DNA of 22,812 nucleotides from a virus (taxonomy: Duplodnaviria; Heunggongvirae; Uroviricota; Caudoviricetes): IMG/VR virus record IMGVR_UViG_2563367158_000003. One strand, written 5' to 3'. Below the pieces are notes generated by a model, which ran no database searches, was not told the DNA's origin, and saw nothing but the letters and a program-made list of their open reading frames with translations. Below are positions 8,629-9,348 of this stretch, piece by piece; position 1 is the stretch's first letter, and the number at the start of each line of letters is the position of its first letter. The position numbers and the translations under genes are program-made.

Positions 8629-9348
8629 ATGACAACTATTAACAAGCATGGGTTATCTAGAACAATTCCTGAACCTGTAAAACTGGAGGTAAGGCAGCGC
8701 TGTGGCTTCGGTTGCGTTGTTTGTGCTTCTCCCATTGTTGAGTATGAGCATGTAATTCCCACATACGCTGATGCAAAGGAGCACTCTCCAAATGCAATAG
8801 CACTACTTTGTCCTACGTGCCATGCGAAAGTAACGAAACGTCTTTACTCTAAAGAGAAAATAATTAAAGCAATGGAATCTCCTGCAGCCTTACAAAAAGG
8901 GAATGTGGCCGATATATTGGACTTTTCTGATAGGCATCCAACAATAATATTTGGTGGTGCGACGTTTGAATCCTGTACTGTACCAATAATGTTTCAAAAT
9001 GAGCCATTGTTAACCATTGAAAAAGAAAATAATGCTTTTCTTATTTCGGGTAAATTTTACGATAGTCAAGGTATTGTTAATCTTGAATTAATTAAGAATG
9101 AGTGGGTTTGTAGTGCAAGGCATTGGGATGTTCAGGTTGTCGGTCCTAGAATAACTATTATAGAAAAAAGGAAAGGTCCTCGTTTAATTATTAAAGTTGA
9201 TGCGCCTGAAAGATTGATTGTGGAAAGATTAGATATGTTGGTTAAGGGGACTCGGATCGTAGGAGACGAACACAAGCTAAGAGTAGGTCCACATCAATTT
9301 CACAACTGTGGAGTTTCAAATTGCAATATTGGTTTCTGCTTTGGCTAA
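8629..9348 (+). CDS. HNH-nuclease-domain protein (239 aa): N-terminal HNH motif plus a roughly 170 aa C-terminal domain of unknown function; AT-rich cargo gene
   Basis: HNH signature read from the translation: CGFGCVVC ... EYEHVIP ... N-AIALLCPTCH. Good RBS (AAGGTAAGG) before the ATG at 8629. Region visibly AT-rich compared with flanking phage genes. Confidence 0.7.
   Translation: MTTINKHGLSRTIPEPVKLEVRQRCGFGCVVCASPIVEYEHVIPTYADAKEHSPNAIALLCPTCHAKVTKRLYSKEKIIKAMESPAALQKGNVADILDFSDRHPTIIFGGATFESCTVPIMFQNEPLLTIEKENNAFLISGKFYDSQGIVNLELIKNEWVCSARHWDVQVVGPRITIIEKRKGPRLIIKVDAPERLIVERLDMLVKGTRIVGDEHKLRVGPHQFHNCGVSNCNIGFCFG

Follow-up and report, generated by a model that had tools for sequence, protein, structure and literature searches.

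The locus described here raises the question of what a gene for an HNH protein of 239 residues is doing between the replication and portal genes of a temperate phage. The original prediction took the gene for horizontally acquired anti-phage cargo, and held a packaging-associated HNH protein, of the kind found beside the terminases of HK97-like phages, to be less likely. The stretch of DNA that we analyzed (22,812 nt; IMG/VR record IMGVR_UViG_2563367158_000003) is referred to throughout as the window.

Architecture of the Prophage

The window is a 186/Fels-2-like (P2-like) prophage. Its integrase (1061–2077) and CI repressor (2081–2719), both on the minus strand, precede an early operon that includes a Dam-type (Dam-class) N6-adenine methyltransferase (4592–5509), and the gene for the replication protein gpA (5506–7920) comes next. 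Beyond gpA, on the plus strand, a promoter-like sequence (TTTACA-N15-TATACT, 7990–8030) overlaps a perfect LexA box (CTGTAAATATAAACAG, 8015–8030), and is followed by two genes of an SOS operon, orf62 (phrog_698; 8075–8262) and a dinI-like gene (8273–8506), and then by the HNH gene itself (8629–9348, plus strand), which starts with ATG. A conserved backbone block that contains GCATG repeats, a terminator and a cos-like core (9408–9570) lies between this gene and an orphan ORF of 223 aa (9769–10440, plus strand), which is in turn followed by the portal gene (10493–11545, minus strand); the terminase and late genes are also in the window. No known RNA elements were found within the window.

At the left end, an ORF at 1–1098 (minus strand, 365 aa, GC 0.31) adjoins the integrase. 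Its sole match is PHROG 17460 (unknown function), and it is likely to be cargo of the integrase-att hotspot mentioned in PMC13586616. Another ORF, at 9321–9566, is annotated as “hypothetical” in strain PSS-11, but is probably no gene, as it runs into the conserved backbone that carries the terminator and cos.

A One-Gene Cassette Beside cos

Based on blastn comparisons with phage 500465-1 and Fels-2, the HNH gene occupies an AT-rich segment of 830 bp (8578–9407) that is present or absent as a unit, and which basically behaves as an insertion/replacement cassette. Phage 500465-1 has 9 bp in its place, and Fels-2 has an unrelated 243-aa hypothetical gene, STM2726 (locus L012, 3666–4397), for which there is no match in Pfam or PADLOC. 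The empty-site junction consists of GCGAGGCGTTAG, CTCTGTAGT and GCATGTCTATGCC, in that order. A single gene fills the cassette, with no space for another. The AT-richness that had suggested horizontal acquisition is borne out by the numbers, with a GC content of 0.377 for the cassette (0.527 for gpA) and a GC3 of 0.289 for the HNH gene (0.572 for gpA).

The left edge of the cassette is formed by a palindrome, TTGATA-TAG-TATCAA (8578–8592), which can be read directly from the sequence, as can a Shine-Dalgarno sequence (AAGG, 8618–8621, plus strand) located 7 nt 5′ of the ATG; the gene thus has the ribosome-binding site of its own that had been attributed to it. The palindrome had been described as imperfect and as a possible operator. 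Its 6-bp arms are in fact perfect, but it is not conserved in the 86%-identical Citrobacter cassette, and a role as operator is therefore not supported. Similarly, the intrinsic terminator at 9462–9489 (a hairpin at 9462–9481 followed by a T run, plus strand) is present as predicted, but is part of the conserved backbone beside cos and not the gene's own. The block that contains it (9408–9570) is kept in P2-like prophages of Escherichia, Citrobacter, Cronobacter and Hafnia, and every slot-1 cassette examined has it as an unchanging right-hand boundary.

Within this block, the core sequence GGCGTGGCGGGGATACGAG (9531–9549), which we take to be cos based on the cohesive-end sequences of 186 and P2, divides the cargo region into slot 1, which contains the cassette, and slot 2, which extends from cos to the portal gene. 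The HNH gene is on the gpA side of this core, which places it at the right-hand end of the genome as packaged in the virion, the tin/old side in P2, in agreement with the position assigned to it in the original prediction. Its location between gpA and gpQ, beside cos and in a region that is variable among related prophages, is that of an experimentally established defence hotspot, the gpA-Q region (PMC9122126; PMC13586616).

A census of slot 1 was made with a fused-flank (empty-site) probe on complete E. coli genomes (n = 5426), 1259 of which contain the prophage backbone. The slot is empty in 333 of the 1259 and holds the HNH gene in 21, whose copies are at least 99.3% identical; the remaining genomes have other inserts, which break at the same or neighbouring junctions. 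The gene is therefore missing from ∼98% of the E. coli sister prophages, and with 21 carriers against 333 empty slots it is neither a core gene nor a packaging factor. That it is horizontally acquired optional cargo is well supported, its rarity and foreign composition being the opposite of the conserved, backbone-like gene that would have spoken against this view.

Slots 1 and 2 vary independently of each other. All of the sampled alternative slot-1 cargo in E. coli is annotated as “hypothetical”, with several genes on the opposite strand, whereas slot 2 of the same prophages contains Septu, the BL21 retron, DUF262, AbiU/AIPR and bSEFIR. When the same or a related HNH gene is in slot 1, the neighbouring slot 2 may contain AIPR (a weak AbiU match), RES, a retron RT-Toprim, Septu or an orphan. 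In slot 1 the HNH gene alternates with other cargo, and the recognisable defence systems of these E. coli prophages, with which the original prediction proposed to see whether it alternates, are on the other side of cos. The sampled slot-1 cargo (STM2726 and loci L027–L030) has sizes of 243, 71+280, 141, 352 and 111 aa.

In the window, slot 2 is occupied by the orphan ORF at 9769–10440, for which searches of Pfam, PHROGs, PADLOC, NCBIfam and PDB sequences gave no match. This ORF adjoins the portal gene, at ∼98–99% DNA identity, in many E. coli strains (NC101, NGF1, ML35 and others), and its position is taken in sister prophages by a retron, Septu, AbiU or DUF262. A two-gene system consisting of the HNH gene and this ORF was considered and rejected, since the two assort independently and have cos between them. 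We likewise rejected a restriction-modification pairing with the methyltransferase at 4592–5509, which is part of the backbone and also occurs in prophages without the HNH gene; furthermore, Hafnia and Cronobacter have HNH-bearing prophages that do not contain that methyltransferase.

A Zinc-Ribbon HNH Domain Joined to an Orphan Beta Domain

The encoded protein has a canonical zinc-ribbon HNH (beta-beta-alpha-Me) nuclease domain at approximately residues 1–83 (8629–8877), followed by an all-beta C-terminal domain at residues 84–239 (8878–9345). The predicted 239-aa HNH gene is thereby confirmed: PF01844 matches residues 29–71 above its cut-off (E = 2.4e-5; 24.8 bits, cut-off 21.4), and the full-length protein matches PHROG 6544 (“unknown function”; E = 2.5e-111). 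The characteristic motifs are C25-x3-C29-x2-C32, EYEH(41)VIP and N55-x4-LCPTCH, the first two being as originally described, and the last having a spacing of four residues instead of five.

In an alignment of 40 homologues with 39–86% identity to the query, the four zinc-ribbon cysteines (C29, C32, C61 and C64) are invariant, as are Y39, H41, P44, A49 and H52, and E40 is found in at least 90%. H65, the last metal ligand, is replaced by N in one subclade, and N55 is variable. We assign roles as zinc ligands to C29, C32, C61 and C64, a catalytic role to E40-H41, and a role as metal ligand to H65. A fold search finds resemblance to the HNH domains of Cap5, IscB and McrA, and the domain has all the hallmarks of the His-Me finger nucleases, i.e., the beta-beta-alpha-Me fold, a catalytic His, a metal-binding His/Asn and CxxC...CxxC zinc ligands. 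As judged from the aligned residues, the active site is intact, and the domain is predicted to cleave DNA. It is basic (median charge +4, pI 9.0). A comparison of the E. coli and Citrobacter copies gives a dN/dS of 0.04 in each of the two domains, with dS near saturation, and both are under strong purifying selection.

The C-terminal domain consists of ∼17 beta strands, and contains seven invariant residues (P85, L152, N157, W166, D167, M203 and G235). The original prediction could not assign this part of the protein, and our searches lead to the same result, although its length is ∼155 aa and not ∼170 aa. The domain has no match in Pfam and none among PDB sequences at E ≤ 10, its best match in a Foldseek search of the predicted viral structures of BFVD has an E-value of only 0.31, and the fold search of the PDB gave nothing convincing. 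It is acidic to neutral (median charge −3, pI 5.6), which argues weakly against a DNA reader, and for a regulatory or protein-binding role.

A profile of the C-terminal domain alone retrieves 1892 representatives among 1.84 billion clusters (50% identity). Within the top 147 of these, 108 also carry the HNH domain, and these include every full-length protein; the other 39 have the C-terminal domain only (∼165 aa, starting at the conserved Met82) and probably reflect gene calls that were cut short. No other N-terminal effector domain is fused to the C-terminal domain among the top 147, a few of which have additional C-terminal TPR or CxxCxxCC extensions; in the search with the full-length protein, SEC-C (PF02810) is found on three proteins. 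This invariant pairing of HNH with one orphan domain suggests that the C-terminal domain may be a gate or a specificity module.

Distribution of the Family

A search of 5.8 billion proteins gives 269 homologues at E ≤ 1e-3, and among the 120 that were listed most are ∼240–260 aa long and align over almost the whole query. The RefSeq protein WP_000207842.1 (“HNH endonuclease”) is at the same position in E. coli PSS-11, with 99.9% DNA identity. In P2-like prophages, slot 1 also contains more divergent homologues, one of 86% identity in Citrobacter, one of 61% in Cronobacter and one of 53% in Hafnia, where slot 2 is filled by RES, a retron-type RT-Toprim and Septu, respectively. Among 80 loci from IMG/VR, 48 are lambdoid and have the homologue in the nin region, flanked by O/P or DnaC on one side and by NinE/RusA/Q on the other, and 14 are P2-like. 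Identical HNH proteins in IMG/VR adjoin slot-2 regions of differing length. RES-domain proteins of 384 aa (L021, 6993–8147) and 459 aa (L007, 9806–11185) are encoded a short distance 3′ of the HNH homologue, the former in a Citrobacter P2-like and the latter in an Enterobacter lambdoid prophage, two types that are unrelated; neither protein has a match in PADLOC.

The family is also found on Acinetobacter plasmids, near BrnTA and Septu, in a prophage of a metagenome-assembled genome, directly 3′ of a gene for a DUF6602 nuclease (DUF6602 is the domain of the integron defence system Damona), and in a Pseudomonas prophage, where a type IV restriction gene is three genes away. In Rhizobacter (L014, 7861–9479), the homologue is an integron cassette bounded by a 137-nt attC-like repeat, an imperfect palindrome (GCCTAAC...GTTAGG) that recurs at three successive gene boundaries, and an integron-type integrase is just upstream of the homologue in four more loci (L127, L138, L158 and L177). 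A regular-expression scan for attC was positive in 0 of 110 loci, but it also missed the known positive in Rhizobacter, and so was too strict to serve as evidence.

Overall, 253 species-representative genomes carry the family, in a patchy distribution that covers Proteobacteria, Cyanobacteria, Bacteroidota, Chloroflexota, Planctomycetota, CPR bacteria and two methanogen-related archaeal assemblies. There is no conserved partner gene: across 110 loci, six is the highest number in which any neighbour family recurs, and that family is a housekeeping-type GGDEF protein. Ten neighbours sampled from diverse genomes outside prophages include one known defence gene (HerA) and approximately four integrases or transposases, the remainder being housekeeping genes.

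Expression Context

The gene order downstream of the LexA promoter is orf62, the dinI-like gene and the HNH gene, and the arrangement of the first two under a LexA box is that of a tum/p95-type SOS operon. We find no intrinsic terminator between the LexA promoter and 9462; the terminator at that position, which is kept in sister phages, is the first strong one downstream of the promoter. Since nothing of this kind separates the HNH gene from the LexA-controlled dinI operon, it could be expressed upon SOS induction instead of, or in addition to, in the lysogen, and we infer that it is probably transcribed at least partly by SOS-on read-through from the dinI operon. No sigma-70 promoter with at least 10 of 12 matches is found between dinI and the ATG. 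An extended −10-like string (TGATATAGT) occurs inside the palindrome and is partly common to Hafnia, but is unconvincing as a promoter.

A strong hairpin follows the dinI stop codon (8513–8547). It has an 11-bp stem that is formed from the CTGGCGTC repeat, has no U tract, is kept in the Citrobacter prophage, and could serve in attenuation or in stabilizing the RNA. Because this hairpin may attenuate read-through, and because a terminator-like hairpin lies ahead of the gene in Hafnia, the coupling to SOS is likely at most; the Hafnia arrangement also leaves room for a promoter belonging to the gene itself. In Fels-2, the slot-1 gene and the dinI-like gene form one predicted operon, which was called differentially expressed after mutagen (MX) treatment/DNA damage, although the 5- to 15-fold induction figures concern the dinI-like gene STM2727 itself (PMC2225428).

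Possible Functions of the Cassette

The explanation that we favor is that the gene product would be a self-contained, single-polypeptide DNA endonuclease, in which the basic zinc-ribbon HNH domain is catalytic and the family-specific, acidic all-beta C-terminal domain governs its activity or targeting, presumably by holding the nuclease inactive until a trigger is met. Travelling as a one-gene cassette among the accessory slots of temperate phages, plasmids and integrons, it would act in conflicts between mobile elements, where its target would be the DNA either of a rival phage or of the infected cell itself. A lone, conserved and apparently active nuclease with no immunity gene to accompany it has to be either latent or highly specific, and the residence of the family in defence hotspots, plasmids and integron cassettes makes mobile-element conflict the best single explanation, to which we would give slightly less than an even chance. 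Several observations weigh against it, i.e., the lack of a PADLOC match and of functional literature found on the family, the placement of the E. coli defence systems in slot 2, across cos from slot-1 cargo that is only “hypothetical” where sampled, and the single known defence gene among ten neighbours sampled outside prophages. Moreover, in P2-like as well as in lambdoid phages the gene is co-oriented with, and just 3′ of, the replication genes, in operons of induction or lytic growth, so that a nuclease of benefit to the phage fits this arrangement as well as a defence nuclease does. A more far-reaching form of the conflict explanation, which is possible but doubtful, is that the family represents a broad bacterial and archaeal single-protein immune nuclease that has so far gone unrecognised, in which the C-terminal domain, as a sensor with a new fold, would set the HNH domain free upon encountering an invader-derived protein or small molecule, and which in P2-like and lambdoid prophages would be wired to SOS or induction, acting among co-induced prophages, satellites and superinfecting phages.

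If the nuclease instead serves the phage, it would be made upon prophage induction as part of the induction/lytic programme, and might process branched replication or recombination intermediates (like lambda NinG/Rap), degrade the DNA of the host or of a co-resident prophage or satellite, or counter host defences. The co-orientation of the HNH gene with the LexA-controlled operon, with no terminator between them, is consistent with this idea, as are the 48 lambdoid loci, where the homologue is in a region that also houses recombination nucleases, and the difference in kind between slot-1 cargo and the recognisable defence systems of slot 2. It is because two unrelated types of temperate phage both place the gene 3′ of replication genes, in induction-time operons, that the idea stays alive. 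We nevertheless think it unlikely, since the gene is dispensable, being carried by no more than 21 of the 1259 E. coli prophages in this lineage, RusA is already present in many of the lambdoid loci that bear a homologue, and a role in phage replication makes little sense for the copies in integrons, plasmids, archaea and cyanobacterial chromosomes. In a specific form of the defence reading, the protein would belong to the type IV (modification-dependent) restriction enzymes, and its C-terminal domain would read modified bases. This would account for a single gene without a methyltransferase or immunity partner, for an HNH fold near those of McrA, ScoMcrA and TagI, and for the weak PADLOC match to mREase_IV; however, that match (E = 0.0095) covers the HNH motif only, and an acidic to neutral domain (median −3) is unlike DNA-binding readers, which makes type IV restriction rather improbable.

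HNH is a classic homing-endonuclease fold, and so a free-standing homing-type enzyme, which would cut the empty slot in sister phages and be copied in by repair, also has to be weighed. The presence/absence polymorphism, the precise junctions, the 333 empty sites that could be targets, and the near identity of the 21 E. coli copies (at least 99.3%) are all as expected for such an element. However, many unrelated cassettes, in part oppositely oriented, are found at these same junctions, which makes the slot a general exchange point, and the family is found at unrelated sites, in nin regions, attC-bounded cassettes and plasmids. In addition, the searches revealed neither NUMOD nor IENR1 nor any other DNA-binding module, and the C-terminal domain is acidic and all-beta. 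Homing is on these grounds improbable. A cos-proximal packaging HNH that aids terminase is suggested by the HNH domain and by the distance of ∼180 bp between the gene and the cos core downstream of it. Here the original prediction was right to be sceptical, and the distribution of the family effectively refutes the reading, to which we attach next to no probability: ∼98% of the E. coli prophages that share this cos and terminase do without the gene, homologues are also found at nin regions, on plasmids and in integrons, the protein is twice the size of packaging HNH proteins, and cos, slot 2 and Q intervene between the gene and the terminase genes.

If the mobile-element conflict explanation is correct, and the protein is a defence or inter-phage weapon, then a compact (∼240 aa), partner-free sensor-plus-nuclease would be added to the catalogue, belonging to a family of 1892 clusters at 50% identity whose sensor domain is without structural precedent, and the right-end slot of 186/Fels-2-like prophages would be a second functional cargo site, separate from the well-annotated cos-to-Q slot. 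If it instead serves the phage at induction, it would exemplify accessory nucleases whose production is timed by SOS.

Relation to Known Systems

Databases already list the family under a generic name, and the hotspot has been published (PMC9122126, PMC13586616). What is new is the delimitation of the one-gene cassette, the two-slot architecture around cos, the breadth of the family, the lack of a structural relative of the C-terminal domain in the PDB or BFVD, and the likely SOS wiring of the gene. The HNH cassette is a well-delimited candidate and not a discovery. No PADLOC v2 defence model was matched (the best, mREase_IV, is the HNH-motif match noted above), NCBIfam gave only marginal matches at the level of the HNH motif, as did PHROGs beyond PHROG 6544, and no functional study of the family was found in the literature.

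The CBASS effector Cap5 (HNH-SAVED; PDB 7rwk) has a similar HNH fold, but the C-terminal domain described here is not SAVED, based on the Pfam, PDB and fold searches, and there is no neighbouring CD-NTase. The HNH fold is also close to those of the McrA-type enzymes (EcoKMcrA, 6ghc; ScoMcrA, 5zmm; TagI, 6ghs). McrA, however, has its reader at the N-terminus, whereas here the order is reversed, the C-terminal domain is acidic, and no modified-base reader (SRA, PUA, winged helix or similar) was detected. Septu PtuB and the retron-associated HNH (TIGR02646) are likewise HNH effectors, and are found in slot 2 of sister prophages; PtuB gave no PADLOC match at E ≤ 1, and the single-gene cassette has no adjacent PtuA ATPase. 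Packaging HNH proteins of the HK97 gp74 type are ∼100–120 aa long, adjoin terminase and are conserved in their lineage, in contrast to the 239-aa protein studied here. With the homing endonucleases, the cassette shares presence/absence at a defined site in otherwise collinear genomes, but not the site-specific DNA-binding modules or the tie of a family to cognate sites. Sirona and Nemetona, from integron cassettes of V. cholerae, are described as having only a distant relationship to His-Me nucleases and NinG (bioRxiv 10.1101/2024.07.02.601686), whereas the HNH protein has a direct match to PF01844.

Old is an ATPase-TOPRIM protein. The HNH protein has no sequence or domain kinship with P2 old/tin, and no Old model was found at E ≤ 1 in the PADLOC search. 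The likeness is one of position class, in that both are optional AT-rich cargo at the gpA-to-cos right end of the genome (hotspot PMC9122126).
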